Source: a virus
Taxonomy: Duplodnaviria > Heunggongvirae > Uroviricota > Caudoviricetes
Direction: 5' to 3' (one strand)
DNA: 21,526 bases
Virus record (IMG/VR): IMGVR_UViG_2778261179_000011
In this document: positions 1-20,710 of the stretch, piece after piece
How the letters are laid out: every line of letters begins with the position of its first letter
Numbering within the stretch: position 1 is the first letter of the stretch
Notes under the pieces: generated by a model
The model's input: the letters and a program-made list of their open reading frames with translations, nothing else
The model's database searches: none
Told to the model about the DNA's origin: nothing
Position numbers and translations under genes: made by a program

Positions 1-142
1 TGACAAAGTCATCGGGCATTATCTGAACATAAAACACTATCAATAAGTTGGAGTCATTACCAAACAAAAGAACGAGTTAAAAGTTGAAATTACTGGAGAT
101 AAGAAACATCCTAGTCTAGGGGATAAAATCCGCGCTGCGGCG

Positions 143-457
143 TTGCATCTCGAAATCCCCACACTGATTGAAGACAATATATGTCCTCAATTCTGGGCTA
201 TCAAGAACGATGGGCAATGGTCTGACATCCCAGAAGCTATAGCCAAATATCGTAACGACTTAGTGCACCCCAAAGCGAGGATAAAATCACAGAACCAACA
301 CGCGCTTACTATTGAGATGTGGCGATTATCTGTTTGGTATCTGGAGCTCTTTATGTTGCGCTTGATTGGATATCAGGATGTCTATTCAAACAGGCTAACG
401 GCTAAATGGCTTGGTGAGGTCGAGCATGTCCCATGGGCCGGTAGCAAATCATCCTAG
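143..457 (+). CDS. Hypothetical protein, 104 aa; doubtful gene or 5'-degraded remnant
   Basis: ORF begins with TTG and has no convincing Shine-Dalgarno sequence. The same frame is open upstream to a stop at 44-46 with no ATG/GTG/TTG. No recognisable motif. Confidence 0.25.
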   Translation: MHLEIPTLIEDNICPQFWAIKNDGQWSDIPEAIAKYRNDLVHPKARIKSQNQHALTIEMWRLSVWYLELFMLRLIGYQDVYSNRLTAKWLGEVEHVPWAGSKSS

Positions 458-490
458 CAACTAATTTGCATTCTATTGCTATCGCAAGGG

Positions 491-513
491 AATTTAGCTA
501 GTTTAGCTAAATT
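491..513. promoter_or_regulatory. Perfect 10-bp inverted repeat (AATTTAGCTA-gtt-TAGCTAAATT), candidate operator
   Basis: Read directly from sequence. Lies 30 bp upstream of the ATG at 543 and overlaps an AT-rich -10-like TATAAA at 513-518. Confidence 0.35.
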
Positions 514-542
514 ATAAAAACGAGCCGTAAGCGAACATTCAG

Positions 543-782
543 ATGAACGAGCAAGAAATTTACGCACAAATCAAAAAAGCTCTGCAAGAGGCACCTCGCA
601 ATCAATACACCGCTGAGCTGCATCTGCAAATGATCAAATATGCTGATGAGCTAAAGAACATCACAGCCAAAGAGTTTTGTGAAGGGGTGGGCCTGCGGAG
701 CAGCTTTGGCACCGAATTTAGCAAAATGCGCAATCTGACTCAGCGCTTGAAAGCTGCCGGGCTCGATACAGCCAAGCTATAA
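543..782 (+). CDS. Small hypothetical protein, 79 aa; possible regulator
   Basis: ATG start, preceded by the inverted repeat at 491-513 and followed 52 bp later by hsdM. No family recognised from sequence. Confidence 0.4.
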   Translation: MNEQEIYAQIKKALQEAPRNQYTAELHLQMIKYADELKNITAKEFCEGVGLRSSFGTEFSKMRNLTQRLKAAGLDTAKL

Positions 783-834
783 CGACTCAAATTTAATCGT
801 GCCGGGCCAATGCTCGGTAATGTAAGGAACAACC

Positions 835-3255
835 ATGGCCATTAAGAAAACCGAACTTTACTCCTCCCTTTGGGCCAGCTGCGATGAGCTGCGTGGCGGT
901 ATGGATGCCAGCCAGTACAAAGACTATGTGCTGACCATGCTGTTTATGAAGTATGTCTCCGATAAGTACAAAGGCGACCCTTACGGCATGATTGTGGTGC
1001 CGCCAGGTGCCAGCTTTGACGATATGGTTGCCTTGAAAGGCGACAAAGAAATCGGCGATAAAATCAATAAAATCATCAGCGCGCTGGCCGAAGAAAACGA
1101 CCTCAAAGGTGTCATCGACGTTGCCGACTTTAACGATGAAGACAAGCTCGGCAAAGGCAAAGAGATGATCGACCGTCTGTCTAAGCTGATCGGTATCTTT
1201 GAAGGGCTAGACCTATCTGCCAACCGCGCCGATGGCGATGACCTACTGGGTGATGCTTACGAATACCTAATGCGCCACTTTGCTACTGAATCGGGTAAAT
1301 CTAAAGGGCAGTTTTATACCCCAGCCGAAGTCTCGCGGATTATGGCGAAAATCATTGGTATTAATGCGCAAACACCACAAGACGCTACGGTCTACGACCC
1401 CACCTGTGGCTCTGGCTCGCTATTGTTAAAAGCCAGTGATGAAGCGCCGCGCGGCTTGTCGATTTTTGGCCAAGAAATGGATAACGCCACCAGTGCCTTG
1501 GCGCGTATGAACATGATCCTGCACAACAACGCCACCGCCAAAATCTGGAAAGGCAACACCATTGCTGACCCGCAATGGAAAGAGGCAAACGGCCAACTTA
1601 AGACTTTTGATTTCGCCGTGGCCAACCCGCCGTTTTCCAACAAAAACTGGACCAGCGGCATTAACCCGAACGACGACGAATTTGGCCGTTTCAGTTGGGG
1701 CATTCCACCCGAGAAAAACGGCGACTACACCTTTTTACTGCACATCATTAAAAGCCTAAAAAGCACCGGTAAAGGCGCGGTCATTCTGCCTCACGGCGTT
1801 TTGTTCCGTGGCAACGCCGAAGCGCGCATTCGTGAAAACCTGATTAAACAAGGCTACATCAAAGGCATTATCGGTTTGCCGGCCAACCTGTTTTATGGCA
1901 CCGGCATTCCTGCCTGTATTATCGTGATTGATAAAGAGCACGCGAACGCTCGCAGCGGCATCTTTATGGTCGATGCCAGCAAAGGCTTTGCCAAAGACGG
2001 CAATAAAAACCGCCTGCGCAGCCAAGATATTCATAAAATCGTTGATGTCTTTACCAAGCAGCTAGAACTGCCGCGCTACTCGCGTATGGTGCCACTCAGT
2101 GAAATCGCCGGTAACGACTACAACCTCAATATTCCGCGTTATATCGACTCCAGCGAACCGGAAGACCTGCACGATTTAAGCGCCCATCTGCAAGGCGGCA
2201 TTCCAAACCGCGATATTGATGCTTTAGAGCGTTACTGGCAGGTGTTCCCGAGTATTCGCGCCTCCTTGTTTGAGCCTGCCCGTGAAGGTTACAGCAAAGC
2301 CTTGGTCAAAGCCTCCGAGGTGAAAAGCACCATCCTGAACCATGACGAGTTCAAAACCTTCGCCGCACAAAGCTTAATACCCTTTACAGAATGGGCGCAG
2401 CGTTCAAACCTCCACGCCATAGCGCAAGATGAACCGCCAAAACAGATTATTCATCGTATCAGCGAAGACCTGTTACAAAGCTATGCGCAAACGCCACTGC
2501 TGAGTAAATACGATATTTACCAGATCCTGATGGATTACTGGGCGGAGTCAATGCAAGACGATGTGTACGTGCTAGTGCAAGACGGCTGGCCAGCAGGCAA
2601 AGTGCTGCGTGAGTTAGTCGTCAAAAAAGGCGAAAAACTGAAAGAATCGCCCGATTTAGTGATTGGCAAAGCCAAATACAAAGCCGAACTCATTCCTCCG
2701 GCGTTGATCGTCGCGCGCTTTTTTGCCGCCGAACAAGTCAAAGTCGATACGCTGCAATCGCTATTGGATAGCGCCAGCCAAGAGCTTGAAACCTACCTTG
2801 AAGAAAACTCGGGTGAAGACGGTTTACTAAACGATGCGCTGAACGACAAAGACAAAGTCACCAAAGCCACAGTCACGGCACGTTTAAAACTCGCCACCGA
2901 CTCAGATGAAAAAGCCGCGCTAAAACAAGCCAAAAAGCTGTTTGATGCTGAGGGTGATGCCAAAAAAGCCCTAAAAGACGCGCAAGACGCGCTCGATTTA
3001 GCGGTGTTTAAGCAATACCCCCAACTCAGCATCGATGAGATCAAATCCATGATTGTGGACGATAAATGGCTGGCAACACTTGAACGTAATATCGTTGCTG
3101 AAATCGAGCGCGTTACCCAGCAACTGGCCAATCGTGTCAAGGAGCTGGAAGAGCGTTATAGCGAGCCACTGCCTGCTCTTACCCAATCAGTAGAAAACTT
3201 GAGCGATAAAGTCGCAGGTCACTTAAAAGCTATGGGCTTGGAGTGGACGGTATGA
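835..3255 (+). CDS. hsdM: Type I restriction-modification system, N6-adenine DNA methyltransferase subunit HsdM (806 aa, long C-terminal extension)
   Basis: Strong RBS (AAGGAA) before the ATG. Motif I DPTCGSGSLL (about 1396-1425), catalytic motif IV NPPF (1624-1635), GQFYTPAEV motif. Extra C-terminal ~280 aa is K/E/A-rich and coiled-coil-like. Confidence 0.9.
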   Translation: MAIKKTELYSSLWASCDELRGGMDASQYKDYVLTMLFMKYVSDKYKGDPYGMIVVPPGASFDDMVALKGDKEIGDKINKIISALAEENDLKGVIDVADFNDEDKLGKGKEMIDRLSKLIGIFEGLDLSANRADGDDLLGDAYEYLMRHFATESGKSKGQFYTPAEVSRIMAKIIGINAQTPQDATVYDPTCGSGSLLLKASDEAPRGLSIFGQEMDNATSALARMNMILHNNATAKIWKGNTIADPQWKEANGQLKTFDFAVANPPFSNKNWTSGINPNDDEFGRFSWGIPPEKNGDYTFLLHIIKSLKSTGKGAVILPHGVLFRGNAEARIRENLIKQGYIKGIIGLPANLFYGTGIPACIIVIDKEHANARSGIFMVDASKGFAKDGNKNRLRSQDIHKIVDVFTKQLELPRYSRMVPLSEIAGNDYNLNIPRYIDSSEPEDLHDLSAHLQGGIPNRDIDALERYWQVFPSIRASLFEPAREGYSKALVKASEVKSTILNHDEFKTFAAQSLIPFTEWAQRSNLHAIAQDEPPKQIIHRISEDLLQSYAQTPLLSKYDIYQILMDYWAESMQDDVYVLVQDGWPAGKVLRELVVKKGEKLKESPDLVIGKAKYKAELIPPALIVARFFAAEQVKVDTLQSLLDSASQELETYLEENSGEDGLLNDALNDKDKVTKATVTARLKLATDSDEKAALKQAKKLFDAEGDAKKALKDAQDALDLAVFKQYPQLSIDEIKSMIVDDKWLATLERNIVAEIERVTQQLANRVKELEERYSEPLPALTQSVENLSDKVAGHLKAMGLEWTV

Positions 3256-4643
3256 CAAATTTTTCGGGAAAACCTCTTTCTCCAAAAACAGGGAACGCCG
3301 CTTGCGGCAGCCCGCAGGGCGGAGGCAGGGATAGCCGACGTAATGGAGTGGCGGAAGTGAGTTCGACATATCTAGCGGAAATGGCTTCGCCCACAGTTCC
3401 CGTTGGATTTAAGCCAACAGAAGTTGGGGTGATTCCTGAAAATTGGGAAGTAATTCAACTTGGTGATTGCACATCTTATGTTGGATCGGGGAAAACTAAT
3501 ACGAAATCCAGAGGTGAATACCCCCTATATGGCTCGACTGGCTTAATTGGAAGTTGCGAAAGACCTGAATACTCTGGTGAAGCGTTGCTAGTTGCGCGTG
3601 TTGGTGCAAATGCTGGAAGGTTGAATTATGTTTGTGGTGAATATGGTGTTTCGGATAACACAATATTAGTTAAAACTAAGCCAGAACATAGCATTGATTA
3701 CTTAAAATATTGGTTGATACGAAAAAATCTAAACACTCTAGTTTTTGGGTCAGGTCAGCCGCTCATAACAGGAACACAACTTAAAGAATTGGCTCTGCCT
3801 CTCCCATCGAAGACAGAACAAGCCGCCATTGCCAATGCCCTATCCGATGTCGATGCGCTGATCGGCGAGCAGGAAAAACTGATCGCCAAAAAACAGGCCA
3901 TCAAAACCGCCACCATGCAACAACTCCTCACCGGCCGCACCCGCCTGCCGCAGTTCGCCCTGCGTGAAGATGGCACGCCCAAAGGCACCAAGCCAAGTGA
4001 ATTGGGCGAAATACCTGAGGATTGGGAGGTTGTGGAGTTTGGCTGCACATTGAAGGAATTTCGAAATGGGTATGCTTTCTCGGCAAATGGATACTCCTCT
4101 ACTGGAACACCAATCATTACTATGGCTCAAATTGGACTTTCAGGCTCATTTCAGTTTGATATCTCCAAGGTGAATAAATGGGATTCGGAACAACAGGATT
4201 CGCTTAAGGAGTTTTGGGTTCGAGACGGTGATCTCCTAATAGCGATGACTGATGTGACTCCAGATAAAAATCTTATCGGTCAAATGACAATCGCTAAGTT
4301 AGGTGGTATAGCACTTCTAAACCAACGCGTTGGCTTGCTTCGGCTTAAAAATGAAATTGCTTATACGGGATACTTTAGTTTTCTGAGCTGTTTGCCTGTT
4401 TGGAAAACATATTGTAAGGGTGTTGCTTCGTTAGGGGTGCAGGCAAATATCGGTACGTCAGATATCAGAAAAGCAAAGGTGCCGCTCCCATCCATAAAAG
4501 AACAAACCGCCATTGCCTCTATCCTCTCCAATATGGACGCAGAGATTCAGGCGCTGGAACAACGCCTTGGCAAAACCCGCCAAATCAAACAAGGCATGAT
4601 GCAAGAACTGCTCACGGGTAAAACACGGCTGCCAATCACGTAA
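3252..4643 (+). CDS. hsdS: Type I restriction-modification specificity subunit HsdS (two target-recognition domains)
   Basis: ATG at 3252 overlaps the hsdM stop (ATGA). Two TRD starts (VIPENWEVIQLGD; EIPEDWEVVEFG) and two conserved repeats ending LLTG(R/K)TRLP. Start is uncertain: the first ~42 codons are low-complexity and GC-rich, and ATG at 3378 (MASPTVPVGF...) is an alternative. Confidence 0.85.
   Translation: MTNFSGKPLSPKTGNAACGSPQGGGRDSRRNGVAEVSSTYLAEMASPTVPVGFKPTEVGVIPENWEVIQLGDCTSYVGSGKTNTKSRGEYPLYGSTGLIGSCERPEYSGEALLVARVGANAGRLNYVCGEYGVSDNTILVKTKPEHSIDYLKYWLIRKNLNTLVFGSGQPLITGTQLKELALPLPSKTEQAAIANALSDVDALIGEQEKLIAKKQAIKTATMQQLLTGRTRLPQFALREDGTPKGTKPSELGEIPEDWEVVEFGCTLKEFRNGYAFSANGYSSTGTPIITMAQIGLSGSFQFDISKVNKWDSEQQDSLKEFWVRDGDLLIAMTDVTPDKNLIGQMTIAKLGGIALLNQRVGLLRLKNEIAYTGYFSFLSCLPVWKTYCKGVASLGVQANIGTSDIRKAKVPLPSIKEQTAIASILSNMDAEIQALEQRLGKTRQIKQGMMQELLTGKTRLPIT
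3809..3950 (+). repeat. HsdS central conserved repeat (direct repeat copy 1)
   Basis: Encodes TEQAAIANALSDVDALIGEQEKLIAKKQAIKTATMQQLLTGRTRLP; clearly related at the protein and DNA level to copy 2 at about 4494-4634. Confidence 0.7.
4494..4634 (+). repeat. HsdS C-terminal conserved repeat (direct repeat copy 2)
   Basis: Encodes KEQTAIASILSNMDAEIQALEQRLGKTRQIKQGMMQELLTGKTRLP; direct repeat of the 3809-3950 segment, flanking TRD2. Confidence 0.7.
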
Positions 4644-4653
4644 GGACACGAAT

Positions 4654-6072
4654 ATGTCACCAGACACCTCCACACATAGGCTGCATGAGCAAGTTAAATC
4701 GGTTTATCAGCTCCTGAGCGAGCCACAGCTGCATATTCCTAACTACCAGCGCCCATACAAATGGACAGCAGACAACCTCCAAGCGCTACTCACCGATTTA
4801 CGCAACTACCGCGATAAATCGGCGTATCGCTTGGGTACGGTGGTGTTTCATCACAACTCAGAGCATTTGGATATTGTTGATGGCCAACAACGCACCCTAA
4901 CCTTAATGCTACTGGTTAAAGCCATTGCTGAACACATGCAGGAGCATAAAGACTTAATCCAGCGCAAAGACTTAAGCGAGCAAATAGCCGAACTGGTTAC
5001 CAATATTGATGCTTTTTTAAGCACACAACCCGACAGCCCCCACAGCGGCATCACCCATACCAACCTTTATCAAAACTACCAAGCGGCTAAGCGGGCAGTG
5101 GCACAGCCTGAGTTTGGCGAAGCAGATATTGCGTTTTTACTGCATAAATGCCAAGTCGTCACCTTTGTGTTGAATGATATTTCTGAGGCGTTTCAGTTTT
5201 TTGACTCACAAAACAGCCGTGGCCGCGACTTAAACCCGCACGACTTACTCAAGGCCTATCATTTACGCGAGTTTCCCGAGCATGAAGCGGCACTCAAAGC
5301 CGAAGCCGTTAAAGACTGGGAAAGCCAAAAAAGCCACGAACTAGCCAGGGTATTTGCCCACTACCTGTATCGCATTCGCCACTGGGTTAATAACCAGCAG
5401 GCCCACTACTTTAGCAAAGACGATATTGGGCTATTTAAGGGCGTGAATCTGTATCAGGCAGCCCATTATCCTTACACCCAAGCGCTGCGCATTCAGCACG
5501 AGCAGGTGGATAACTACAATAATCACTTTCAGCGCAAGCTAGACCAAAACACGCTGGCGTTTCCGTTTCAGCTCGATCAAATCGTAATTAATGGGCGGCG
5601 CTTTTTTGAAATGATTGCGCACTACCAAGCGCTGATTAACAGCCTAACCGGCGAGGCATTAACCAAACAGTCCAGCATTCCTTTATCAGACCGTGCACAG
5701 CAGATTCTTAACGCGCTCAATAGCTATGGGGCACGGCATCGAACGGGCGATCGTTATATCCGCATGCTGTTTGACTGTGCGCTGCTGTATTACTTCGATA
5801 AATTTGGCAAAGAGCAACTATCAGAAGCGATCGAAAAGTTTTTCATCTGGGCCTATAGCTGCCGCTTAACCAGCCACGCTGTGTATATCGAAACCATGGA
5901 TAACCACGCCCGCAACAGCAAACTGTTTAAATTAATCCAGTCCGCCATTAGCCCAAAACAAGTACTGGCGCTGCCTTTAAAAACCCTCACCCCCGCTGAT
6001 CTCAAGGCAAGTAAGATGGGCGATTTGGTTAAGCTATTCGAAGGAATGAAATACTATGTCGAATCCAAATAA
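4654..6072 (+). CDS. DUF262 (ParB/Srx-like nuclease fold) protein, 472 aa, GmrS-like; no recognisable HNH C-terminus
   Basis: RBS AAGGA 8 nt upstream. N-terminal ...IPNYQRPYKW... and DGQQR motif (4879-4893), both hallmarks of DUF262. Starts 10 bp after the hsdS stop. Confidence 0.75.
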   Translation: MSPDTSTHRLHEQVKSVYQLLSEPQLHIPNYQRPYKWTADNLQALLTDLRNYRDKSAYRLGTVVFHHNSEHLDIVDGQQRTLTLMLLVKAIAEHMQEHKDLIQRKDLSEQIAELVTNIDAFLSTQPDSPHSGITHTNLYQNYQAAKRAVAQPEFGEADIAFLLHKCQVVTFVLNDISEAFQFFDSQNSRGRDLNPHDLLKAYHLREFPEHEAALKAEAVKDWESQKSHELARVFAHYLYRIRHWVNNQQAHYFSKDDIGLFKGVNLYQAAHYPYTQALRIQHEQVDNYNNHFQRKLDQNTLAFPFQLDQIVINGRRFFEMIAHYQALINSLTGEALTKQSSIPLSDRAQQILNALNSYGARHRTGDRYIRMLFDCALLYYFDKFGKEQLSEAIEKFFIWAYSCRLTSHAVYIETMDNHARNSKLFKLIQSAISPKQVLALPLKTLTPADLKASKMGDLVKLFEGMKYYVESK

Positions 6073-8086
6073 GATAACGAGCTTTTCCATTAGGCAGCTG
6101 TTAGCAGATCACGCCTCCTATCAGATCCCTATGTATCAGCGTAACTATGCGTGGGAAAAAGGCGAAATTGATCAGCTGATTCAGGATGTTGTTGATTATC
6201 AAGTCCAAAAAAAGCCTTACTACATCGGCAGCTTAGTGGTGTATCCACGGGATAATCAGCTATTTGAAGTGATTGACGGCCAGCAACGCTTTACCACGCT
6301 CACGCTAATTGCTTTATGTTTGAAGCACTTCAGCATGTTGGCTGAAAAAGAAGGGACAACGTCTGTTAATAAAGTTGACATGAGTTGGTATCAAACGCCT
6401 AATTTATGCTTTGAAAGCCGCGCTAACTCAACCCTCACCCTTGAAAAAATAACAGCCTTTAGCGCCTCTACTGCTAAGCATTTGTCACTAGATCCAGCCG
6501 ATATTAATCAGTGCAACAGCGCTATTTTAAATGGCTTTAACTTGGTGCAGCAGGCGTTATCTGAGCTTGCTAAACAGCATGACCTACATCAGTTTTGTGA
6601 GTACTTATTTGATTGGGTAAAAATCACCCGCGTCCCCGTTCCCCACGACACTGATTTAACCCATTACTTTGAGGCGATGAATAATCGCGGGGAACAGCTA
6701 GAAAAACACGAAGTGCTAAAAGCCAGAATGCTCTCTGTGCTGCAAGATGCCAGCCACCAACACCCTGAGAATAAAAGCGCGCAGGAAGTGCTCAATAAAG
6801 TGTGGAATGCCTGCGCCAATATGGAGCGTTATGTGCAGTTTGGCTTTAACCCCATCGAGCGCCAGCAGATCTTTGGCAATGAGTGGCAAAAATTTACCGC
6901 TAACAGCTTTACTGAGCTTCATCACGCGCTAATAGCCCCTGAAAACAGAGCAGCCAACACCACAGTCGACACTCATAGTGATGAGCCAGCCGCCAAATCA
7001 CTGGCTGAAATGTTGAACACACCTTATACCGATAAACAGGCAGAAACAGATAAAAATCAACCATCGCCTGAACGCTTTAACAGCGTGATTAATTTTTCTA
7101 ACTTTTTATTGCAGGTCTTAAGGGTTTACAGCCAAAAAGACATTTCTTTGGACGATAAGCAGTTAATTGATCAGTTCGAAACGCATATTTTGCACGCAGA
7201 CGAGGCAGCAGAAAAAGTTAAAGCGTTTGTGTTTGCCTTATTAAAATCCAAATACCTATTTGATCACTACGTGATAAAACGCGATGCGACGGCTCAGGAC
7301 AAGTGGGGCATCAAGCAATTAAAACGCTATGAGCGCAATAGCCAAAGCTACGTCAATACCTTTGCCCAAAACGATCAGCCTGATACCACTCACTCGCAAT
7401 TAAATCAGCGCATTGTTTTATTACTAAGCGCCTTTCATGTCTCTACGCCCACCATGAACTACAAGCACTGGTTAACCGGCGTTTTGCATATCCTGCATCA
7501 ACTGCACGCCAAGCAACTCGATGCAGACAACTATTTAAAGGCACTCGAAAAGCTCGCCAGAAGCTTTATCTATGGGCGTTATTTGGCTAAAACAGCGGCT
7601 GATTATTACACACTGATTTTTGATAACCCGAAGGACTATCAACCCTTAGCGGACACGTGTTTTTTACGGTGTCGCTTGCGCTATGGTTCGATTAAAAACA
7701 ACTTTGTATTTAACTATTTAGATTATTTGCTGTGGTGCACCACCCAAGATAAGGACCTGGTGTATCGTGAGTTTGAATTTAGTTTTAGAAGCTCGGTCGA
7801 GCATTTCTACCCACAAGATCCCTACTCTGGCGAACCATTAGAGGATGGGCCTTTGCATAGTTTTGGTAACCTATGCCTAATTAGCCACAGCAAAAACTCT
7901 AAGCTCAGCAACTACCAACCCACGGCTAAAAAAGAGCACTTTCAAGCAGCCAGCACCCAAGGCAAAATCGACTCACTCAAGCTGTATGAAATGACTCGGG
8001 TTAAAGTATGGGATGCAGATGCTATCCACAAGCATGAAACCCAAATGCTGGGATTGTTTATTAAGGATTCTGAGGGAGAAAAATGA
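6056..8086 (+). CDS. DUF262 + DUF1524 (His-Me finger/HNH-like) protein, 676 aa; GmrSD-like putative modification-dependent (Type IV-like) restriction endonuclease
   Basis: N-terminal ...IPMYQRNYAW... with DGQQR (6275-6289). C-terminal SVEHFYPQ...GNLCLISHSKNSKLSN (about 7793-7915), typical of the DUF1524 nuclease module. Overlaps the previous gene by 17 bp and hsdR by 4 bp. Confidence 0.75.
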   Translation: MSNPNKITSFSIRQLLADHASYQIPMYQRNYAWEKGEIDQLIQDVVDYQVQKKPYYIGSLVVYPRDNQLFEVIDGQQRFTTLTLIALCLKHFSMLAEKEGTTSVNKVDMSWYQTPNLCFESRANSTLTLEKITAFSASTAKHLSLDPADINQCNSAILNGFNLVQQALSELAKQHDLHQFCEYLFDWVKITRVPVPHDTDLTHYFEAMNNRGEQLEKHEVLKARMLSVLQDASHQHPENKSAQEVLNKVWNACANMERYVQFGFNPIERQQIFGNEWQKFTANSFTELHHALIAPENRAANTTVDTHSDEPAAKSLAEMLNTPYTDKQAETDKNQPSPERFNSVINFSNFLLQVLRVYSQKDISLDDKQLIDQFETHILHADEAAEKVKAFVFALLKSKYLFDHYVIKRDATAQDKWGIKQLKRYERNSQSYVNTFAQNDQPDTTHSQLNQRIVLLLSAFHVSTPTMNYKHWLTGVLHILHQLHAKQLDADNYLKALEKLARSFIYGRYLAKTAADYYTLIFDNPKDYQPLADTCFLRCRLRYGSIKNNFVFNYLDYLLWCTTQDKDLVYREFEFSFRSSVEHFYPQDPYSGEPLEDGPLHSFGNLCLISHSKNSKLSNYQPTAKKEHFQAASTQGKIDSLKLYEMTRVKVWDADAIHKHETQMLGLFIKDSEGEK

Positions 8087-11000
8087 GTAACGTCGGCCAG
8101 CGTGAACGCATGACCCAACAGCGCATTGTTGAGCTGTTTCAAACGGATTTAGGCTACCGCTATTTAGGTAACTGGGAATACCGCGATAACAATAAAAACA
8201 TAGAAGTTGAGCTACTAACGAGCTGGCTGAAAAAGCGCGGCATAAGCGAGGCGCTGATTAATCGCGTGATTCGTCAGCTAGACAGCGCAGCGGCGCTGGG
8301 CGAAGGTAAAAAGCTCTATTACGCCAACAAAGAGGTTTATCGCCTGCTGCGTTACGGCGTGAAAGATAAAGAAGGTGCTGGCCATCTTAATGAAACCGTG
8401 TGGCTGATTGACTGGAAAAATCCAGAAGCAAACGATTTTGCCATTGCCGAAGAAGTCTCTATCAAGGGTGAAAACAAAAAATGCCCAGACATAGTGCTGT
8501 ATGTCAATGGTATCGCTCTAGGTGTGATTGAGCTGAAACGCTCTTCGGTGTCTGTCTCTGAGGGTATTCGCCAGAACCTCGATAACCAAAAGAAAGATTT
8601 TATCCGTAACTTCTTCACCACCATGCAATTGGTGATGGCGGGTAACGACACGCAAGGCTTGCGTTACGGCACGATTGAAACCCCGGAGAAGTATTATCTT
8701 GAATGGAAAGAAGAGATAGAGAACGGGTATAGCCATAAGCTCGACTTTCACCTGAGCCGCGTATGCAATAAAGCGCGTTTTTTACAGATCATCCACGATT
8801 TTATTGTTTTCGATGCGGGTATTAAAAAGACCTGTCGTCACAATCAGTTCTTTGGTATTGAAGCGGCAAAACGCCATATCGCAAGGCGTGAAGGCGGCAT
8901 TATTTGGCATACGCAAGGTTCTGGCAAAAGCCTCACTATGGTGTGGTTGGCCAAATGGATACGTGAAAATGTCAAAGACGCCCGTGTATTGATCGTGACC
9001 GATCGTACCGAGCTGGATGAGCAGATAGAAAAAGTATTCACCGGTGTTGAGGAAGATATTTATCGCACCAAAAGCGGTGCCGATTTGGTGGCGACGCTCA
9101 ATCAGCCCAACCCTTGGTTGGTATGCTCTTTAGTCCATAAATTTGGTCGGCAGTCTGATTCGGAAAACGATACCGCGACGGATGAGTTTATTGCCGAGTT
9201 AAAGAAATCCCTACCATCGGACTTTAAAGCCAAAGGCGACCTATTCGTATTTGTTGATGAATGCCACCGTACTCAATCGGGCAAGTTGCACGAAGCGATG
9301 AAGTCCATTCTGCCAGAAGCCATGTTTGTCGGCTTCACCGGCACCCCCTTGATGAAGAAAGACAAGAAAAAATCGGTTGAGGTATTTGGCCCTTACATTC
9401 ACACCTATAAGTTTGATGAAGCTGTGGCCGATGGCGTTGTGCTCGATTTACGCTACGAAGCACGAGACATCGACCAAAATGTCACGTCGCAGAAAAAGGT
9501 CGATGAATGGTTTGAAGCCAAAACTCGCGGCTTATCTCGATTAGCGAAAACCCAGTTGAAACAGAAATGGGGCACCATGCAAAAGGTGCTGTCCAGTAAA
9601 TCGCGTTTGCAGCAGATTGTGAATGATATCTTGCTGGATATGGACACTAAGCCACGCCTGATGGATGGCTACGGCAATGCCATGTTGGTCTGCTCTAGTG
9701 TCTATCAAGCTTGTAAAGCTTATGAAATGTTCAGCCAAACAGATTTAGCCGGCAAGGTGGCTATTGTCACCAGTTTTCAGCCGACCGCTGCGAGCATTAA
9801 AGGGGAAGAAACCGGTGAAGGCTTAACGGAAAAGCTCTTTAAGTACGATATTTACCGCAAAATGCTTGCGGATTACTTCGAGCAACCGGAAGACAAGGCC
9901 GCTAACCGAGTTGAAGAGTTTGAAAAAGAAGTTAAAAAACAATTTATTGATGAGCCAGGGCAAATGCGCTTGCTCATCGTGGTCGATAAGTTGCTGACTG
10001 GCTTCGACGCCCCTTCGGCTACCTATTTGTATATCGACAAACAGATGGCTGATCACAATCTGTTTCAGGCCATTTGCCGCGTGAACCGCTTGGATGGCGA
10101 TGATAAAGAATACGGTTACATCATTGACTACAAAGATCTGTTCCGCTCGTTGGATAAAGCGATTTCTGATTATACTCAAGGCGCATTTGATGGTTATGAC
10201 AAGGAAGACGTTGCAGGGCTGCTGAAAGATCGTTTAGAGCAAGCCAAGCTCGATTTGGATAATGCGCTGGAAATGGTGCGCGCCTTGTGTGAGCCGGTAA
10301 AAGCGCCACGCAACACGGAAGACTACATTTATTATTTTTGTGGTAAGTCAGGTCTGAACCAAGACGAGCTCACCGAGAAAGAAGCACTGCGTTTAACGCT
10401 TTATCAGAACGTTGCCAAACTGCTGCGTGCGTTCGCCAATATCGCCAATGAAATGCCTGATGCAGGCTATTCTGCGCAAGATGTAGACTCGATAAGAACA
10501 GAAGTGGCTCATTTTGAAAAAGTCCGTGACGAAGTAAAACTGGCCAGTGGCGATTTGGTAGAAATGAAACGCTTTGAGCCTGCGATGCGCCATTTGTTAG
10601 ATATGTATATTCGTGCGGATGACAGCGAAGTACTGATGGATTTTGAAGAGCTGGGGCTTATTGAGCTCATTGTCGAAAAAGGCGCTGATGCCGTGGAGGC
10701 TTTGCCTGATAGTATTCGCAAGAATCAGGAAGCCATGGCCGAAACCATCGAAAATAACGTGCGTAAAACCATCGTTGATGAAAACCCGGTTAACCCCAAG
10801 TATTACGAGCAAATGTCGGTGTTATTGGATGAGCTGATTGAGCTTCGTCGCCAAAAAGCGATTGAATATCAAGAGTATTTGGAAAAAATCCGCGAGCTGT
10901 CTCGTAAGGTTATACGTCCGGAGCAGACAGCGGCTAACTATCCGCCATCGATGGACTCTAATCCAAAACGCGCGTTTTACGATAATTTTGGTCAAGATGA

Positions 11001-11175
11001 ATTGCTGGCTACCAAAATAGATAGTGCCATTCGTTATACCAAAAAAGCGGATTGGGTCGGAGATCGCTTTAAGGAGCGAGAAATTGCCAATGCGGTGCGA
11101 GAAGAAACGACGGGGTATGAGGTGGATATTCAGGGTGTAATGGAATTGGCAAAAGCGCAAAAAGAGTACCATTGA
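8083..11175 (+). CDS. hsdR: Type I restriction enzyme endonuclease/translocase subunit HsdR (1030 aa)
   Basis: N-terminal PD-(D/E)xK nuclease motif (PDIVLYVNGIALGVIELK). SF2 helicase motifs: Walker A HTQGSGKSLT (about 8911-8940), motif II FVDECHR (about 9253-9273), motif III FTGTP. ATGA overlap with the upstream gene. Confidence 0.9.
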   Translation: MSNVGQRERMTQQRIVELFQTDLGYRYLGNWEYRDNNKNIEVELLTSWLKKRGISEALINRVIRQLDSAAALGEGKKLYYANKEVYRLLRYGVKDKEGAGHLNETVWLIDWKNPEANDFAIAEEVSIKGENKKCPDIVLYVNGIALGVIELKRSSVSVSEGIRQNLDNQKKDFIRNFFTTMQLVMAGNDTQGLRYGTIETPEKYYLEWKEEIENGYSHKLDFHLSRVCNKARFLQIIHDFIVFDAGIKKTCRHNQFFGIEAAKRHIARREGGIIWHTQGSGKSLTMVWLAKWIRENVKDARVLIVTDRTELDEQIEKVFTGVEEDIYRTKSGADLVATLNQPNPWLVCSLVHKFGRQSDSENDTATDEFIAELKKSLPSDFKAKGDLFVFVDECHRTQSGKLHEAMKSILPEAMFVGFTGTPLMKKDKKKSVEVFGPYIHTYKFDEAVADGVVLDLRYEARDIDQNVTSQKKVDEWFEAKTRGLSRLAKTQLKQKWGTMQKVLSSKSRLQQIVNDILLDMDTKPRLMDGYGNAMLVCSSVYQACKAYEMFSQTDLAGKVAIVTSFQPTAASIKGEETGEGLTEKLFKYDIYRKMLADYFEQPEDKAANRVEEFEKEVKKQFIDEPGQMRLLIVVDKLLTGFDAPSATYLYIDKQMADHNLFQAICRVNRLDGDDKEYGYIIDYKDLFRSLDKAISDYTQGAFDGYDKEDVAGLLKDRLEQAKLDLDNALEMVRALCEPVKAPRNTEDYIYYFCGKSGLNQDELTEKEALRLTLYQNVAKLLRAFANIANEMPDAGYSAQDVDSIRTEVAHFEKVRDEVKLASGDLVEMKRFEPAMRHLLDMYIRADDSEVLMDFEELGLIELIVEKGADAVEALPDSIRKNQEAMAETIENNVRKTIVDENPVNPKYYEQMSVLLDELIELRRQKAIEYQEYLEKIRELSRKVIRPEQTAANYPPSMDSNPKRAFYDNFGQDELLATKIDSAIRYTKKADWVGDRFKEREIANAVREETTGYEVDIQGVMELAKAQKEYH

Positions 11176-11888
11176 TGCCTAAGGTAGAAATTGGTTCTAT
11201 TGCGATGCAGTTAAATCGTAAGGCAATTAAAAACCTTCATATCAGCGTGTTGCCACCTGATGGGCGTGTGCGTGTTTCTGCTCCTGAATCTATGACAGAA
11301 ACCGCAATCCGTATGGCAGTGATCAGCCGCATTCCTTGGATCAAGAAACAGCAGAGTGTTTTTGCCAAACAACCTCGCCAATCTGATCGAGCAATGGTTA
11401 GCGGTGAATGTCATTACCTGTGGGGCAGGCGTTATCGTCTGAATCTTATCGAGCGTTCCGGAAAGCATGAAATCAAGCTAGGTCGTGGTCGATTGCATTT
11501 ATATGTCAATCCCGCAACAACGCTTGAGAACAAGGCACTGGTACTGAACTCATATTATCGAGATGCACTTAAAACGCGAATCGCTGAGTTATTGCCTGTT
11601 TGGGAAGATAAGATCGGCGTTAAAGCTGTAGATTGGGGAATTAAAAAGATGAAAACCAAGTGGGGCAGCTGCAATATTCAGGCAAAGCGCATTTGGCTAA
11701 ATTTAGAGCTTGCTAAAAAGCCACCGGAGTGTTTGGAGTACATCCTAGTGCATGAATTGGTGCACTTGCTTGAGCGTAATCACAATGAACGCTTCAAGGG
11801 GTATATGGACAAGCTACTTCCCGATTGGCGAGAGCGCAGAGATTTGTTGAATCGGATGCCCTTGGCGCACAACGATTGGGTGTACTAG
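11175..11888 (+). CDS. M48-family / YgjP-like (DUF45) zinc-dependent hydrolase, ~237 aa
   Basis: HExxH zinc-binding motif HELVHLLE (11751-11774) preceded by WGSC. ATG at 11175 overlaps the hsdR stop (TGATG); the track ORF starts 3 nt earlier at TTG 11172. This family is commonly found directly downstream of hsdR. Confidence 0.75.
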   Translation: MPKVEIGSIAMQLNRKAIKNLHISVLPPDGRVRVSAPESMTETAIRMAVISRIPWIKKQQSVFAKQPRQSDRAMVSGECHYLWGRRYRLNLIERSGKHEIKLGRGRLHLYVNPATTLENKALVLNSYYRDALKTRIAELLPVWEDKIGVKAVDWGIKKMKTKWGSCNIQAKRIWLNLELAKKPPECLEYILVHELVHLLERNHNERFKGYMDKLLPDWRERRDLLNRMPLAHNDWVY

Positions 11889-12284
11889 GAAAATTATGCA
11901 GAGTTTGCATGGTTAGCCTGATTATGTATGTGGCGCGTAATTTGAGATAAACTTGATAGTAAAAGCGGGAAATGGATTTCATTTCTCCGATATTTTGCTC
12001 AGGTGCTGTCGCTAAAAGTGTCAAGATTCTATCTTTACGCTTGGCGGCCAATACTCCCGCAGTACCTACCCAGAAAATAGCCAATATTGGGATCAACTTA
12101 ACAGTTTTGGCTTTGTTTATTATAAAAACCAGCACTTTCAATTAGTTGAATGGTTTATTCGCTAGTTTATGTGAACTACCGTTCTAACGAATAGAACACC
12201 CCGAGATATTGCTTTCGCTGGTGGGAAAACATTCCTAACCAACCTGAAGGCGCAATACATCAGTTTTTAAGCAGAGAAAAGACT

Positions 12285-13079
12285 ATGACAGCACAAAATA
12301 CTAAAACAATTCAATACCGCCTGCGTAATGGCCAGAGTGTCGAAGTGACCATCAATAATGATGGTGTACCTGGCGAAAAGGTTTCTATCTCTGATCTGGC
12401 TATCGAAAAAACCATCATGTGCCACCTTGGCTTTACTGAAGAAGTGAGCAAAAAGCATGGTGTAGCTATCTGGCGCACAATGGATACTGGAATGCGCAGA
12501 TTCATTACTGCTCGTACCCCTGGTATGACCATGATGGACCTCATACAGATTGCGCCGCTGTTTGAGTGTGAACCTTTGGATGTATTCAGCAATCCAGCTA
12601 TCTGCCAGCAGTTATATGGTGAGATGAAACTCGCGGTTACCCCCATTGTGCTGCATGAAGGATCGCTTGCTGGCGTATGGAAAGTAGAGCGAATTTCAAG
12701 CTACATGCCATTCCACATCCATGTCAACGGCGTAATCGCAGGTGAAAATCAACCTGTTTCAGTTACAAAGTCAGACCTCAATCGCGCAATTCTTGAAGCA
12801 AGTTGTCGAGTTATCGGCCTGGGCAAACAGTCTTATGTTTCCTTCCCGGCTGGTCCTGAAGGCCCGGCAGAAATTCTGATTATGGATGCCGATCTGCTCT
12901 GGCAAATACAGTTTCTGATTGGCAAAAGCATCATCCGCGCTGAAGAACTCGATCAGTACATTACCTGCACGATGACGGATGAAGTCAAAAGTGTGGCTAT
13001 AGCCAATGCCCGGAAGCTATGTCGTGCTGCATTAACAGAACTGCAAGAAAACACCACGGAAGAAGTGGAAAGCGATTAA
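12285..13079 (+). CDS. Hypothetical protein, 264 aa, function unknown
   Basis: Clean ATG ORF after a ~400-bp AT-rich intergenic region; ends 3 bp before a strong hairpin terminator. No motif recognised. Confidence 0.5.
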   Translation: MTAQNTKTIQYRLRNGQSVEVTINNDGVPGEKVSISDLAIEKTIMCHLGFTEEVSKKHGVAIWRTMDTGMRRFITARTPGMTMMDLIQIAPLFECEPLDVFSNPAICQQLYGEMKLAVTPIVLHEGSLAGVWKVERISSYMPFHIHVNGVIAGENQPVSVTKSDLNRAILEASCRVIGLGKQSYVSFPAGPEGPAEILIMDADLLWQIQFLIGKSIIRAEELDQYITCTMTDEVKSVAIANARKLCRAALTELQENTTEEVESD

Positions 13080-13081
13080 AA

Positions 13082-13105
13082 AAAATCCCGCCGATTGGCG
13101 GGATT
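13082..13105. terminator. Bidirectional rho-independent terminator (10-bp perfect stem AAATCCCGCC / GGCGGGATTT, 4-nt loop)
   Basis: Read directly from sequence. Minus-strand orientation is followed by a U-run of 8 or more (A-run 13076-13084 on plus); plus-strand orientation by TTTCTTC. Sits between convergent genes 12285-13079 (+) and 13109-13426 (-). Confidence 0.65.
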
Positions 13106-13108
13106 TCT

Positions 13109-13426
13109 TCAATATACGATCTGGTCTACATGATCCCCAAAATCATCGTCGTCATCGTCGTCGTCCTCATCGCCACCCTCTACTGCTGGCCAATCAACAA
13201 ACCAGCCAGCGTAAAGATGCAGCGTTCGGAGAACATCACTTGCGGGAGCATCAAGGGTGTTAACGAATCCCATATAGCTATTGGGATTTGCCCCAGCTAT
13301 GGCTTCAGCGATCATGTCCTCGGTAATGTCACCGGAGATAATGCTTAAACGCCCGGAAACTTCTTCATTATCATCAAATTCGATAATGGCATCTCCGCCT
13401 AATGGCGCTGCGATTTTAATCTGCAT
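13109..13426 (-). CDS. Highly acidic small protein, 105 aa, with a D8 tract (DEDDDDDDDDFGD); last gene of the dar-like operon
   Basis: About 26 Asp/Glu against about 3 Lys/Arg. Poly-Asp encoded by a (GAY)n run at 13142-13171. Overlaps the upstream 995-aa gene by 11 bp. Confidence 0.5.
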   Translation of the reverse strand: MQIKIAAPLGGDAIIEFDDNEEVSGRLSIISGDITEDMIAEAIAGANPNSYMGFVNTLDAPASDVLRTLHLYAGWFVDWPAVEGGDEDDDDDDDDFGDHVDQIVY

Positions 13427-16403: not shown

Positions 16404-16415
16404 CCCTGTTACGCC

Positions 16416-16781
16416 TTATGCTGCCTCTTTAATGTTGGCGGCTATCCATGCCGCCGTGTGCTGTTTAACCTGGTCCAGGTCGATGTATGTGCCAACATAT
16501 TGACTCAAGTCCTGCAAGGTACCGATAAATGCATCTGTGCTCTGATCGACGAATTTATCAGCCAGGAAATCAGCAACCAGTTTTGGCACACCATCATGTT
16601 CCGAAGGTTGTTTTTCATCGCCACTACCACCGCCGGACGCGCCGTACCCCATCTGTTGCATGATCTGGTCAATTTCATCGCTGATATCCAGCAACTCCAT
16701 GCCACTCGCGGTGGCCGCTTTGGACATCAGAGCATCCAACTTATCGCTGAGATCCATTAACTCAATAGCTGATAGTGTCAT
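16416..16781 (-). CDS. ddrA: DdrA-like small acidic protein, 121 aa
   Basis: ATG overlaps the stop of the upstream 639-aa gene (ATGA). Called by size and operon position only. Confidence 0.5.
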   Translation of the reverse strand: MTLSAIELMDLSDKLDALMSKAATASGMELLDISDEIDQIMQQMGYGASGGGSGDEKQPSEHDGVPKLVADFLADKFVDQSTDAFIGTLQDLSQYVGTYIDLDQVKQHTAAWIAANIKEAA

Positions 16782-18697: not shown

Positions 18698-18698
18698 G

Positions 18699-19310
18699 TT
18701 AATTTCCTGCTTTCAGTTGCTTAAGACGGCGTTTGAGTTCGCCATTTCGGGCCTTTTCGTTATTGAGTCGGCCTGTCTCCTTATCCAGCTTCGCCCGCAA
18801 ATCAGTGATCTGCTGTTGATTGAAAGACACCGAGTTCTGCGCTGATTTATAAGCGGCAACCACCTGAGCATTCCGCTGTTTTGCCTCTTGCAGGCGCTGA
18901 AAGTTGGATTTTACTGCCGGTTTCTTGTCTACCGGATTGGCAACACGTTTCGCTTTGGCGATCAGTGATTTCTGGAATTTTGCGGAGTTTTTGCGGGCCG
19001 CTTGCCCCATGACGGTACCAAGCGTCTTGATATCCGGCGACTGAGCGTTAGGAATAGCTTTTCCATTCAGCCTCACAGACGATATATCGCCAGTATCGTT
19101 TACCTGTATGGCAAGAATTTGTCCGTCGTTAAGAACCAGCTTTGCGGTTTTAACTTTAACGCCATCTTTCGTTGTTGCGCGGTTGCTGGAGTCAACCTCA
19201 ATTACCGTAACACCGGTTTTATTGATCGCCGCGATAAGGGATTTCAGCCCCTTTTCATTAACCTGGTCAAAATCGACCGTTGCATACTTATTTTTCGTCA
19301 TCTGACACAT
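18699..19310 (-). CDS. hdf: Hdf-like protein (homologue of DarA fragment), 203 aa
   Basis: Shares the NSAKFQ-containing segment with the 639-aa protein. Its stop TAA abuts the darA-like ATG. Lysine-rich coiled-coil C-terminus. Confidence 0.6.
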   Translation of the reverse strand: MCQMTKNKYATVDFDQVNEKGLKSLIAAINKTGVTVIEVDSSNRATTKDGVKVKTAKLVLNDGQILAIQVNDTGDISSVRLNGKAIPNAQSPDIKTLGTVMGQAARKNSAKFQKSLIAKAKRVANPVDKKPAVKSNFQRLQEAKQRNAQVVAAYKSAQNSVSFNQQQITDLRAKLDKETGRLNNEKARNGELKRRLKQLKAGN

Positions 19311-19731
19311 CCTGTGCGAGATTTATTACGTAACTTCTGCGGATTTGCTGAGTAACAGGGAAAATCCGATACAACGGGTTAATGAACGAGTCGCCATGCG
19401 TAACCATGACGTTGAAATGCCACAGTCGCTCTCCTTTACCCATATATTCAGTGGGTATGTACAACCATTCACTGTTTTCGCCCTGTTCAGCCGACGTCAA
19501 ACAACGTTGTTCGCCTTCAATCACTGTCGTCGGCTTCTGAACATCGCGGATCCAATATCTGACCGTTGCGCCGCGCAAAAACGGGAATTTAGACCGGTAT
19601 TTGAACGGCACCCGGATGAAACCCGGTTTAATTTCCACATCACCAAGTTCTAAATGCGTGATGTCCTTGCGTTTTAGCAAATAGCGATCGGCTAAGGCTA
19701 ACGCAAGAACGCATACACCCCAGCCAATCAT
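19288..19731 (-). CDS. lydB: LydB-like protein, 147 aa (lysis regulator/antiholin in P1)
   Basis: Starts 4 bp inside the end of the holin-like gene and overlaps hdf by 23 bp. Called by size and position only. Confidence 0.45.
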   Translation of the reverse strand: MIGWGVCVLALALADRYLLKRKDITHLELGDVEIKPGFIRVPFKYRSKFPFLRGATVRYWIRDVQKPTTVIEGEQRCLTSAEQGENSEWLYIPTEYMGKGERLWHFNVMVTHGDSFINPLYRIFPVTQQIRRSYVINLAQDVSDDEK

Positions 19732-20057: not shown

Positions 20058-20131
20058 AAGTTCCCTCCTACGTTGTCAGGAGGTAATGGTATGCAAAGTA
20101 ACTTCTCAACCGGTTATGTTGCATAAGAGAC

Positions 20132-20395: not shown

Positions 20396-20466
20396 TTTTT
20401 ACCTATACAACAGTAAGTTGAACAACATTTGAGAACGGTATGCACTTTGTGATTTCCACACACACT

Positions 20467-20485
20467 GGTTTTGTTAATTAAAACC
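20467..20485. promoter_or_regulatory. Inverted repeat GGTTTT-gttaatt-AAAACC in the lyd/dar operon upstream region
   Basis: Read directly from sequence; 6-bp arms, 7-nt AT-rich spacer, about 70 bp upstream of the 87-aa gene start. Confidence 0.25.
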
Positions 20486-20691: not shown

Positions 20692-20710
20692 CCCTAGTCT
20701 CGGACTAGGG
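20692..20710. repeat. Perfect hairpin/palindrome CCCTAGTC-tcg-GACTAGGG
   Basis: Read directly from sequence; 8-bp arms. A related sequence, CCTAGTCTAGGGG, occurs at 110-122. Confidence 0.4.

Follow-up and report, generated by a model that had tools for sequence, protein, structure and literature searches.

A candidate RptR-controlled Type I restriction island with an exchangeable TgvAB-type cassette

The 21,526-nucleotide viral DNA record IMGVR_UViG_2778261179_000011 (Caudoviricetes), the whole of which is referred to here as the window, encodes a Type I restriction-modification (R-M) operon in which two DUF262 genes are packed between hsdS and hsdR. We read this locus, with a probability of roughly 0.8, as an island controlled by the repressor RptR and built upon one Type I R-M family, in which the scaffold runs from rptR, hsdM and hsdS over a cargo slot to hsdR and a YgjP-like gene, and the slot houses a TgvAB-type cassette. 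This reading draws upon the order of the genes and their overlaps, the orthology of the scaffold to that of the RRDM island of enteropathogenic Escherichia coli (EPEC), the homology of the cargo to TgvAB at the level of the family, the intact NTPase and His-Me-finger motifs of the cargo proteins, and the sharp borders of the cassette, all of which are apparent from the sequence and its comparison with relatives.

Both the frame and the embedded pair have already been published, the former in 2025 and the latter in 2024. In EPEC E2348/69, the genes of the RRDM island are ordered rptR-hsdM-hsdS-darT-darG-hsdR-M48 (Zhang et al., NAR 2025, PMC12255303). TgvA (VC1767) and TgvB (VC1766) constitute a two-protein, GmrSD-like Type IV restriction system located within the Type I operon VC1769-VC1765 of Vibrio pathogenicity island 2 (VPI-2) of V. 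cholerae (Vizzarro et al., J Bacteriol 2024, PMC11411939; Gomez & Waters 2024, bioRxiv 10.1101/2024.04.05.588314).

Gene content and junctions

The features of the island upon which the argument depends are as follows.

495-500 and 504-509, + strand: two TAGCTA palindromes, the predicted RptR operator, overlapping the putative island promoter; 9 bp apart and 34-48 nt upstream of the rptR ATG
543-782, + strand: rptR, encoding a 79-aa repressor (RMS-proximal transcriptional regulator); Pfam HTH_73, E 4e-32
835-3255, + strand: hsdM, 806 aa; Pfam N6_Mtase 1e-103 and HsdM_N 4e-17; PADLOC MTase_I, 1422 bits over the full length; TIGR00497 above cut-off
3252-4643, + strand: hsdS, with two target-recognition domains; Pfam Methylase_S in two stretches; PADLOC Specificity_I over 44-462
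4654-6072, + strand: tgvA-like gene, 472 aa, without a nuclease domain; GmrSD_N (DUF262) and DUF7834 (3e-78)
6056-8086, + strand: tgvB-like gene, 676 aa; GmrSD_N (DUF262) and GmrSD_C (DUF1524, 1e-11), the latter a His-Me-finger nuclease
8083-11175, + strand: hsdR, 1030 aa; Pfam HSDR_N, SWI2_SNF2, ResIII and T1R_D3-like; PADLOC REase_I, 1718 bits; TIGR00348, 557 bits
11175-11888, + strand: YgjP-like (DUF45) zinc metallohydrolase gene, 237 aa; Pfam PF01863, 9e-62, and a weak SprT-like match
4629-8082, + strand: cargo cassette, without DNA homology to the Vibrio loci (L084, L085) that share its flanks at 92-93%
11967-11987, + strand: putative terminator hairpin downstream of the YgjP-like gene, with a 9-bp stem and a weak T tail; a consensus match only

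An earlier, sequence-only reading of this DNA had proposed six co-directional open reading frames (ORFs) at 835-11888. All six are intact, lie on the + strand and occupy those coordinates, the overlaps described for them (ATGA, the overlap within the DUF262 pair, ATGA and TGATG) are all present, and Pfam agrees with their assignment as HsdM, HsdS, DUF262 with DUF7834, DUF262 with DUF1524, HsdR and a YgjP-like protein (PF01863). What that reading overlooked is a seventh gene upstream, rptR (543-782), together with its operator. The components expected of a Type I enzyme are all encoded, namely an HsdM with an N6-adenine methyltransferase and an N-terminal domain, an HsdS with two target-recognition domains, and an HsdR with a nuclease and a superfamily 2 translocase.

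The genes are tightly packed throughout. The rptR gene ends 52 nt upstream of hsdM, the TGA of which (3253-3255) overlaps the hsdS ATG at 3252 as ATGA; the longest hsdS ORF begins with a GTG at 3243, while the RefSeq start is 3252. The hsdS stop at 4643 is followed, after a 10-nt gap that includes AAGGA, by the ATG of the tgvA-like gene at 4654, a junction for which the sequence-only reading described no overlap. The stop of the tgvA-like gene at 6072 lies beyond the tgvB-like ATG at 6056, yielding a 17-nt overlap. The tgvB-like gene and hsdR then share ATGA at 8083-8086, and the hsdR TGA (11173-11175) and the YgjP-like ATG (11175) share TGATG. The size of the tgvA/tgvB overlap depends upon the choice of start codon, as some RefSeq records begin the second gene at the ATG at 6131, which leaves no overlap. 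However, L15, Y22 and P25 of the tgvB-like protein, whose codons precede 6131, show conservation of at least 95% among 68 homologues, which identifies the ATG at 6056 as the true start.

The DUF262 pair as a TgvAB-type system

The references for comparing the cargo with TgvAB were residues 1-399 of the two Vibrio proteins, as given in Table S3 of PMC11411939. The tgvA-like protein exhibits 25% identity to VC1767 over ~400 aa (BLASTP, E 4e-21) in an alignment spanning both domains, and the tgvB-like protein exhibits 24% identity to VC1766 over ~400 aa (E 3e-24). The first 399 aa of VC1767 contain GmrSD_N and DUF7834 (3e-38), which is the same architecture as found in the tgvA-like protein. Among the homologues compared (68-75), the tgvA-like motifs Q32R33 and D76GQQR80 are conserved, and in the tgvB-like protein Q28-R29, D74GQQR78, E582-H583-x-x-P586, N605, N614 and N619 are each at least 95% conserved in 68 homologues. 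Thus, the window contains the features by which a TgvAB system would be recognized: adjacent, co-oriented DUF262 genes with QR and DGQQR motifs, a TgvA devoid of a nuclease, a TgvB with a His-Me finger, and distant homology to the V. cholerae proteins. A system of this kind would in addition depend upon both proteins and would specifically restrict phages with glucosylated or arabinosylated hydroxymethylcytosine. Furthermore, Table S5 of PMC11411939 includes E. coli QEP81666.1 and Salmonella QHN43830.1 among the VC1767 homologues classified as "TgvAB only", and both match the tgvA-like protein of the window at every N-terminal residue given there (more than 110).

Defence libraries provide less specific information. 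With the PADLOC library of 2023, which is older than the description of TgvAB, the DUF262 proteins yield only partial N-terminal matches, to the HEC-06, Orf5 and SspE models, and no model matches the YgjP-like protein or RptR; NCBIfam has no model matching the DUF262 pair, the YgjP-like protein or RptR. The PADLOC and PDB sequence matches include SspE and DUF262 proteins.

In V. cholerae, both TgvA and TgvB are needed for activity, phages with glucosylated hydroxymethylcytosine (hmC) are targeted, and HsdR activity is not required (PMC11411939; bioRxiv 10.1101/2024.04.05.588314). A TgvB of the fused type is inactive by itself (PMC11411939; bioRxiv 10.1101/2024.04.05.588314). Moreover, tgvAB alone protects E. 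coli, and the HsdR mutation K172A leaves protection unreduced (PMC11411939).

Borders of the cargo cassette

Loci with the same flanks were located in Vibrio via their YgjP-like proteins, which are 94% identical to that of the window. The DNA identity of 92-93% extends over hsdM and two conserved parts of hsdS, and then from 8083, the hsdR ATG, to 11887. Within hsdS, DNA matches to the relatives are limited to two conserved regions, one central (3815-4031) and one C-terminal (4498-4628). The homology breaks off at 4627/4628 and restarts exactly at 8083, with none between 4629 and 8082. A comparison with hsd loci lacking the inserted genes, which the sequence-only reading had put forward as a means to define the insertion boundaries, therefore places them at 4629-8082.

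The slot holds different genes in different relatives. In the Vibrio loci it contains either an 875-aa SMC/AAA_21-like ATPase and an AlbA_2/HATPase_c_4 protein or a set comprising a short DUF262 protein, an AAA_15/DUF3696 ATPase, one unknown gene and an AlbA_2 protein. Further relatives have a Fic module or its remnants, or the ATPase pair again, and no empty slot was found among the sampled loci. Neither a transposase nor a repeat borders the cassette, which stops exactly at the hsdR start codon with the coupling kept. The guanine-cytosine content is 0.45 in the cassette versus 0.46-0.50 in the flanks, such that composition offers no contrast. The site between hsdS and hsdR has previously been called a potential recombination hotspot (PMC12255303). 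Because the borders are sharp, relatives carry other cargo and stand-alone pairs exist, the DUF262 pair is, as judged from these comparisons, cargo that occupies a known slot and can be exchanged, and does not belong integrally to the enzyme.

The same DNA comparison offers an observation on the history of the scaffold: between E. coli and Vibrio (V. cholerae, V. parahaemolyticus and V. fluvialis; L084-L088), the hsdM, hsdR and YgjP-like DNA is 92-93% identical (window 835-3255 and 8083-11887). The YgjP-like proteins of E. coli and Vibrio are 93-95% identical, with unrelated cargo. This pattern points to a recent transfer of the scaffold between genera accompanied by cassette swapping. Another relative (L095) has an additional DUF1016/YhcG nuclease gene (492-1589 of that locus) between hsdM and hsdS.

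The scaffold itself is shared with EPEC. Protein identities between the window and the EPEC island are 75% for RptR, 73% for HsdM, 79% for HsdR and 71% for the M48 protein; that of HsdS is merely 34%, as would be expected for a specificity subunit. Among 5426 complete E. coli genomes, the hsdR-M48 pair occurs in 247, with most records falling into a band of ~74% identity, and both of the records of this band that were opened (n = 2) carry DarTG. The DUF262 cargo of the window occurs in 15 of the 5426 genomes, at 12 chromosomal and 8 plasmid places.

Conservation of the embedded arrangement

When one genome per species was scanned with an alignment of TgvA homologues, 80 loci were obtained, from which one identical copy (L004) was excluded. 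ORFs were classified by phmmer against the window proteins and called as the longest ORF, so some overlaps are overestimated. The tgvA gene is directly followed by tgvB in 77 of the 79 loci, and in the two loci without tgvB (L060 and L065) the sequence ends at or just after tgvA. Among the 54 loci with at least 4.5 kb on each side, 23 have the order hsdM-hsdS-tgvA-tgvB-hsdR-ygjP, 29 are stand-alone pairs and 2 are of other kinds. The embedded block is found among Gamma- and Betaproteobacteria, Desulfobulbus, Bacteroidota and Verrucomicrobiota, with identities to the window of 42-56% for TgvA and 41-97% for the YgjP-like protein, and a ygjP-like gene follows hsdR in all 23 embedded loci.

The junctions are likewise conserved. 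An overlap of 8 nt between tgvA and tgvB is the commonest (47/76 loci) and is the same value as reported for V. cholerae; hsdS and tgvA overlap by 4 nt in 18 of 33 loci, and hsdR and ygjP by 1 or 4 nt in 25 of the 30 measurable loci. Since the same junction types recur in homologous loci of several phyla, coupling at the junctions is, by this comparison, beyond chance.

Such conservation is pertinent to the earlier proposal that the six products are made together rather than resulting from a chance insertion into a canonical operon, which holds in one respect and fails in another. The six-gene order appears to be a selected arrangement and not a one-off accident, because it recurs among the bacterial groups listed above. 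The DUF262 pair is nonetheless an insertion: homology to relatives stops at 4628 and resumes at 8083, those relatives have other cargo, and about half of the tgvAB pairs have no hsd genes nearby.

One could instead suppose that a mobile two-gene unit was recently inserted into an ordinary hsdMSR operon without selection, leaving incidental overlaps and polar effects upon hsdR that are tolerated or harmful. Sharp cassette borders would be anticipated from such an event, as would the position of the island among IS elements on mobile DNA and the rarity of the cargo among the complete E. coli genomes (15/5426). Nevertheless, five or more phyla have the six-gene order with intact ORFs, at protein identities of 40-56%, its junction overlaps are conserved, no transposase or repeat is present at the borders, and the cassette ends at the hsdR start codon in a manner that keeps the coupling. 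We consider an unselected insertion to be very improbable.

Three contigs from a viral collection (L101, L103 and L105) carry tgvAB after the Type I genes and not inside them. In L101 the order is hsdM-hsdS-hsdR-ygjP-tgvA-tgvB, and its HsdM is short and of a different type.

The published census recorded 79 embedded pairs among 1,341 tgvAB hits, versus 23 of 54 in the present sample of the closest relatives of the window TgvA, and embedding may accordingly be undercounted. There is no Escherichia entry in the "Type I + TgvAB" Table S3 of PMC11411939, even though the pair lies between hsdS and hsdR both in the window and in the examined relatives. It seems that the published count of embedded tgvAB misses the Type I family of the window and that such loci were counted as stand-alone. 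The lower published share may be due to search models built from the Vibrio Type I family.

RptR and transcription of the island

Several features suggest that the island has a repressor. The RptR of the window, 75% identical to EPEC E2348/69 RptR (WP_000343040.1), retains E25, E58, S60, K61, L69, A72 and L74, which are all of the residues named in PMC12255303. The minimal RptR site has been published as TAGCTA, of which three copies are present in the EPEC island at -57, -48 and -39, with the same 9-bp period as the two copies in the window (PMC12255303). The hexamer is not enriched across the window (5 found versus 3.6 expected); the argument for an operator is carried by position and spacing.

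Transcription signals within the block are sparse. A simple scan of 1-13500 found 7 promoter-like sites versus 19.4 expected from shuffles, of which only two are + strand sites inside the block, each with 9/12 matches. The hairpins inside the block on the + strand are short-stemmed (5-7 pairs), none of them a convincing terminator, and the hairpin at 11967-11987 is the only one on the + strand of 1-13500 with a stem exceeding 7 pairs. Judged from these signals, a single co-transcript of the block is plausible.

Proposed function and points of doubt

Based upon these features, a working model can be proposed by analogy with the characterized systems. A promoter upstream of rptR would drive the island, with RptR dimers on the two TAGCTA sites repressing it until infection. 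HsdM2S would methylate a bipartite host site, and HsdR2M2S would translocate and cut incoming DNA that is unmethylated. TgvA and TgvB would presumably act jointly and independently of HsdR, their DUF262 NTPase domains sensing a hypermodified cytosine such as glucosyl-hmC and the TgvB nuclease performing the cut, thereby covering phages whose modification blinds the Type I enzyme. The tight overlaps would fix subunit ratios, especially TgvA:TgvB and HsdR:YgjP. Lastly, the YgjP-like zinc hydrolase, as part of the Type I scaffold, might be a protease acting upon HsdR or the repressor, although this is speculation and a best guess.

A number of observations weigh against this reading or add nothing to it. 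Firstly, the Type I family of the window is unlike that of VPI-2, with only 28% identity in HsdM and 24% in HsdR. Secondly, the identity to V. cholerae TgvA and TgvB is only ~25%, and GmrSD-family enzymes differ in the modification they sense, so the window pair may target either glucosyl-hmC or another modification. Thirdly, the single transcript is deduced solely from gene packing. Internal promoters within hsdS are possible, because a V. cholerae tgvAB clone that included 520 bp of hsdS sequence upstream was protective, from what the authors regard as its native promoter (bioRxiv 10.1101/2024.04.05.588314). Fourthly, the full V. cholerae cluster protects 10-100x better than tgvAB alone (PMC11411939), which would allow for some functional coupling between the pair and the Type I enzyme. 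Finally, structure prediction contributes no support for the tgvA-like or the YgjP-like protein. The tgvA-like model has a pLDDT (predicted local distance difference test) of 64, with only its N-terminal domain confident, and in a Foldseek search against the PDB it matched nothing at E<=0.001, with only non-significant matches to ParB; the YgjP-like model, built from an alignment of 22 sequences that are 73-95% identical, has a mean pLDDT of 58 and a predicted template modelling score (pTM) of 0.33, with the catalytic half below 50.

The fourth of these points is also an argument for a single integrated machine, in which TgvAB would be checked or activated by the Type I complex and would serve as a back-up when R-M is inhibited, much as PrrC does in EcoprrI. 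Like tgvAB here, prrC in ecoprrI is located between hsdS and hsdR (PMC12707154), and translational coupling is tight on both sides of the DUF262 pair. A specific partnership is, however, difficult to reconcile with the 29 of 54 well-flanked pairs that have no hsd genes nearby, with the pairs placed after the Type I genes, or with the protection of E. coli by V. cholerae tgvAB alone, upon which mutation of the HsdR nuclease had no effect (PMC11411939). Unrelated cargo in the same slot of sister loci likewise fits a neutral docking site better. PrrC-type guarding would also entail an anticodon nuclease with an ABC-ATPase-like N-domain, and such domains are absent from all window ORFs in Pfam and PADLOC searches. 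We regard an integrated machine as improbable, and a TgvAB-type cassette docked in an RptR-controlled Type I scaffold as the better account.

The YgjP-like gene

The sequence-only reading had treated the YgjP-like gene as accessory in the same sense as the DUF262 pair. This is not borne out: with its position after hsdR in 23/23 embedded loci, the gene is, by comparison of loci, part of the scaffold and travels with hsdR. Its product has the conserved residues H193-E-x-x-H197, E200 and H203, and weak PDB sequence matches to projannalysin and proabylysin (minimal metallopeptidases), MJ1213 and Wss1. Despite the presence of HExxH, Pfam assigns no Peptidase_M48 domain and gives only PF01863 with the weak SprT-like match; "M48 family" is a RefSeq product label only. 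PF01863 is a large family with 21,820 cluster representatives at E<=0.001, and no HsdR-YgjP fusion was found among the best 150 cluster representatives. Two longer YgjP-like relatives (P0305 and P0327) have a second peptidase domain, M78 (ImmA/IrrE-like), which in one of the two is accompanied by HTH_26; these additions hint at a role in regulatory proteolysis.

We tentatively entertain the possibility that the YgjP-like hydrolase is a dedicated protease, which would either remove HsdR, as a form of restriction alleviation independent of ClpXP, or cleave an RptR-type repressor. All loci examined have the gene adjacent to hsdR, and this, together with the conserved HExxH-E-H site, the weak kinship with SprT and Wss1, and the rare fusions with M78 and HTH domains, stands behind the suggestion. 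The strict coupling of ygjP to hsdR favors a protease that acts upon HsdR. There is precedent for both activities, since ClpXP provides restriction alleviation for EcoKI and CapP cleaves the repressor CapH. If correct, removal of HsdR would let the island establish itself in a new, unmethylated host, whereas cleavage of the repressor would switch the island on during infection. The gene is noted in PMC12255303. Proteolysis is mentioned there as one option for lifting RptR repression upon infection.

The gene might also be an unrelated housekeeping neighbor downstream of hsdR with no role in defence. The YgjP of E. coli K-12 appears to be a housekeeping protein, PF01863 is very large, the defence libraries (PADLOC and NCBIfam) have no model for it, and we found no functional study in the literature on DUF45, YgjP, COG1451 or M48 together with Type I restriction. 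A housekeeping neighbor would not be expected to follow hsdR in 23/23 embedded loci and in every sampled sister locus, at identities down to 41% and with a 1- or 4-nt overlap in 25/30, nor to recur after hsdR in L101, whose short HsdM is of a different type. The metal-binding motif is conserved as well. For these reasons, a mere housekeeping neighbor seems unlikely.

The carrier element and its P1-like surroundings

The window is composed of three parts: the end of an IS1 (1-61), the restriction island (62 to ~12185) and phage P1-like DNA (12187-21526). The features outside of the restriction genes are as follows.

1-61: IS1 right end, with a junction identical to that of an IS1A in the E. coli A29 chromosome
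12179-12185, + strand: CCGTTCT repeat at the right end of the carrier element, a repeat that flanks the complete 18.6-kb element
13416-16403, - strand: ddrB
16416-16781, - strand: ddrA
16778-18697, - strand: darA
18699-19310, - strand: hdf
P1-like segment, - strand: lydB and lydA
20831-21412: invertase gene, on the strand opposite to that of cin in P1

Tn10/tet was considered as the origin of bases 1-61 and rejected, as these bases match the IS1 end. The IS1 cuts into a gene for a 437-aa hypothetical protein, of which the last 131 codons (62-457) remain in the window. The gene content of the P1-like stretch is isaA-like, hxr, ddrB, ddrA, darA, hdf, lydB, lydA, lydC and the invertase gene, and its homology to P1 itself ends at 20699. 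The Type I R-M island thus adjoins the darA anti-restriction operon, with which the phage itself counters Type I restriction.

The island constitutes the right-hand two-thirds of an 18.6-kb carrier element, the left part of which has been removed by IS1 in the window. The complete element starts with three tandem tyrosine-recombinase-like genes (391, 532 and 669 aa), only the first of which passes the Pfam cut-off, and also has a gene with a weak DUF6262 match below the cut-off. In strain Z1323CEC0011, the chromosomal and P1-like plasmid copies of this element are 100% identical (L092 2545-21147; L002 plus L093); the former lies between ssb and yjcB and the latter after the P1 ssb. Both copies are inserted at the last codons of ssb with CCGTTYT on each flank, and the element brings a new ssb stop codon such that the C-terminus of the single-stranded DNA-binding protein (SSB) is preserved. 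As regards long attachment (att) repeats around the 18.6-kb element, a direct-repeat search found none, and alignment of the junctions revealed only the 7-bp CCGTTYT. These insertions suggest site-specific targeting of ssb 3' ends by the carrier element. At 12179-12200 of the window, the element's right end joins P1-like DNA ~100 nt downstream of the position expected from P1, namely the end of ssb, and the local sequence at this joint, CGYTTTTMACGAA in empty P1-like sites, resembles the CCGTTCT core. The offset joint could reflect either integration at a secondary site or loss of a short stretch by deletion.

The seven-gene order of the island is also present on L004 (CALJDJ010000001.1), an 18.6-kb contig of a metagenome-assembled genome assigned to an uncultured Collinsella. 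Its tgvA-like product is 100% identical to that of the window, and two ORFs, broken at locus position 13702-13705, stand in place of one hsdR. The contig is probably enterobacterial and mis-binned, with the break due to a frameshift or a sequencing error.

Implications

If the proposed functions are correct, a single island would act against two classes of invader, with the Type I enzyme directed at unmodified DNA and TgvAB probably at hypermodified phage DNA. The island lies among IS elements and is carried by mobile DNA, a P1-like phage-plasmid included; with such mobile carriage, one transfer can confer both barriers. Targeting of ssb 3' ends could shuttle the element between the chromosome and the phage-plasmid.

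Comparison with known systems

Foreign defence genes also sit among hsd genes elsewhere, as do the rlo genes in the hsd loci of Campylobacter. The Type IC system ecoprrI resembles the window in that a foreign defence gene, prrC, lies between the hsd genes of a Type I operon (PMC12707154). However, PrrC, an anticodon nuclease, becomes active upon inhibition of the R-M enzyme, and it has no homology to the window cargo. Single-chain Type IV enzymes such as GmrSD, BrxU and SspE share with the tgvB-like gene the combination of a DUF262 NTPase sensor and a DUF1524 His-Me nuclease, whereas the window encodes two proteins, including an additional nuclease-less partner with DUF262 and DUF7834.

The parallels to TgvAB of VPI-2 are more extensive. 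Both loci have the order hsdM-hsdS-tgvA-tgvB-hsdR, a TgvA with DUF262 and DUF7834, a TgvB with DUF262 and DUF1524, DGQQR in both proteins, a His-Me finger in TgvB, and overlapping tgvA and tgvB ORFs. They differ in the length of this overlap (17 nt in the window versus 8 nt), in protein sequence, with an identity of only ~25%, and in the Type I family, the window HsdM having 806 aa and belonging to another family; moreover, neither rptR nor a YgjP-like gene is reported for VPI-2.

With the RRDM island of EPEC, the window shares an orthologous scaffold, TAGCTA operators at 9-bp spacing upstream of rptR, cargo between hsdS and hsdR, and an M48 start that abuts the hsdR stop. The cargo is distinct, being a TgvAB-type Type IV restriction pair in the window and the DarT/DarG toxin-antitoxin in EPEC, as are the number of operator sites (two versus three) and the HsdS specificity (34% identity). 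An RptR homologue and two TAGCTA sites upstream of rptR are present in the window, whereas an embedded DarT-DarG is not; the window therefore holds the RRDM scaffold, yet it is not an RRDM in the strict sense. The RRDM of EPEC and the TgvAB-in-Type-I arrangement of Vibrio can be viewed as one design, a conserved frame with a swap-in slot, the borders of which can be placed to the base.

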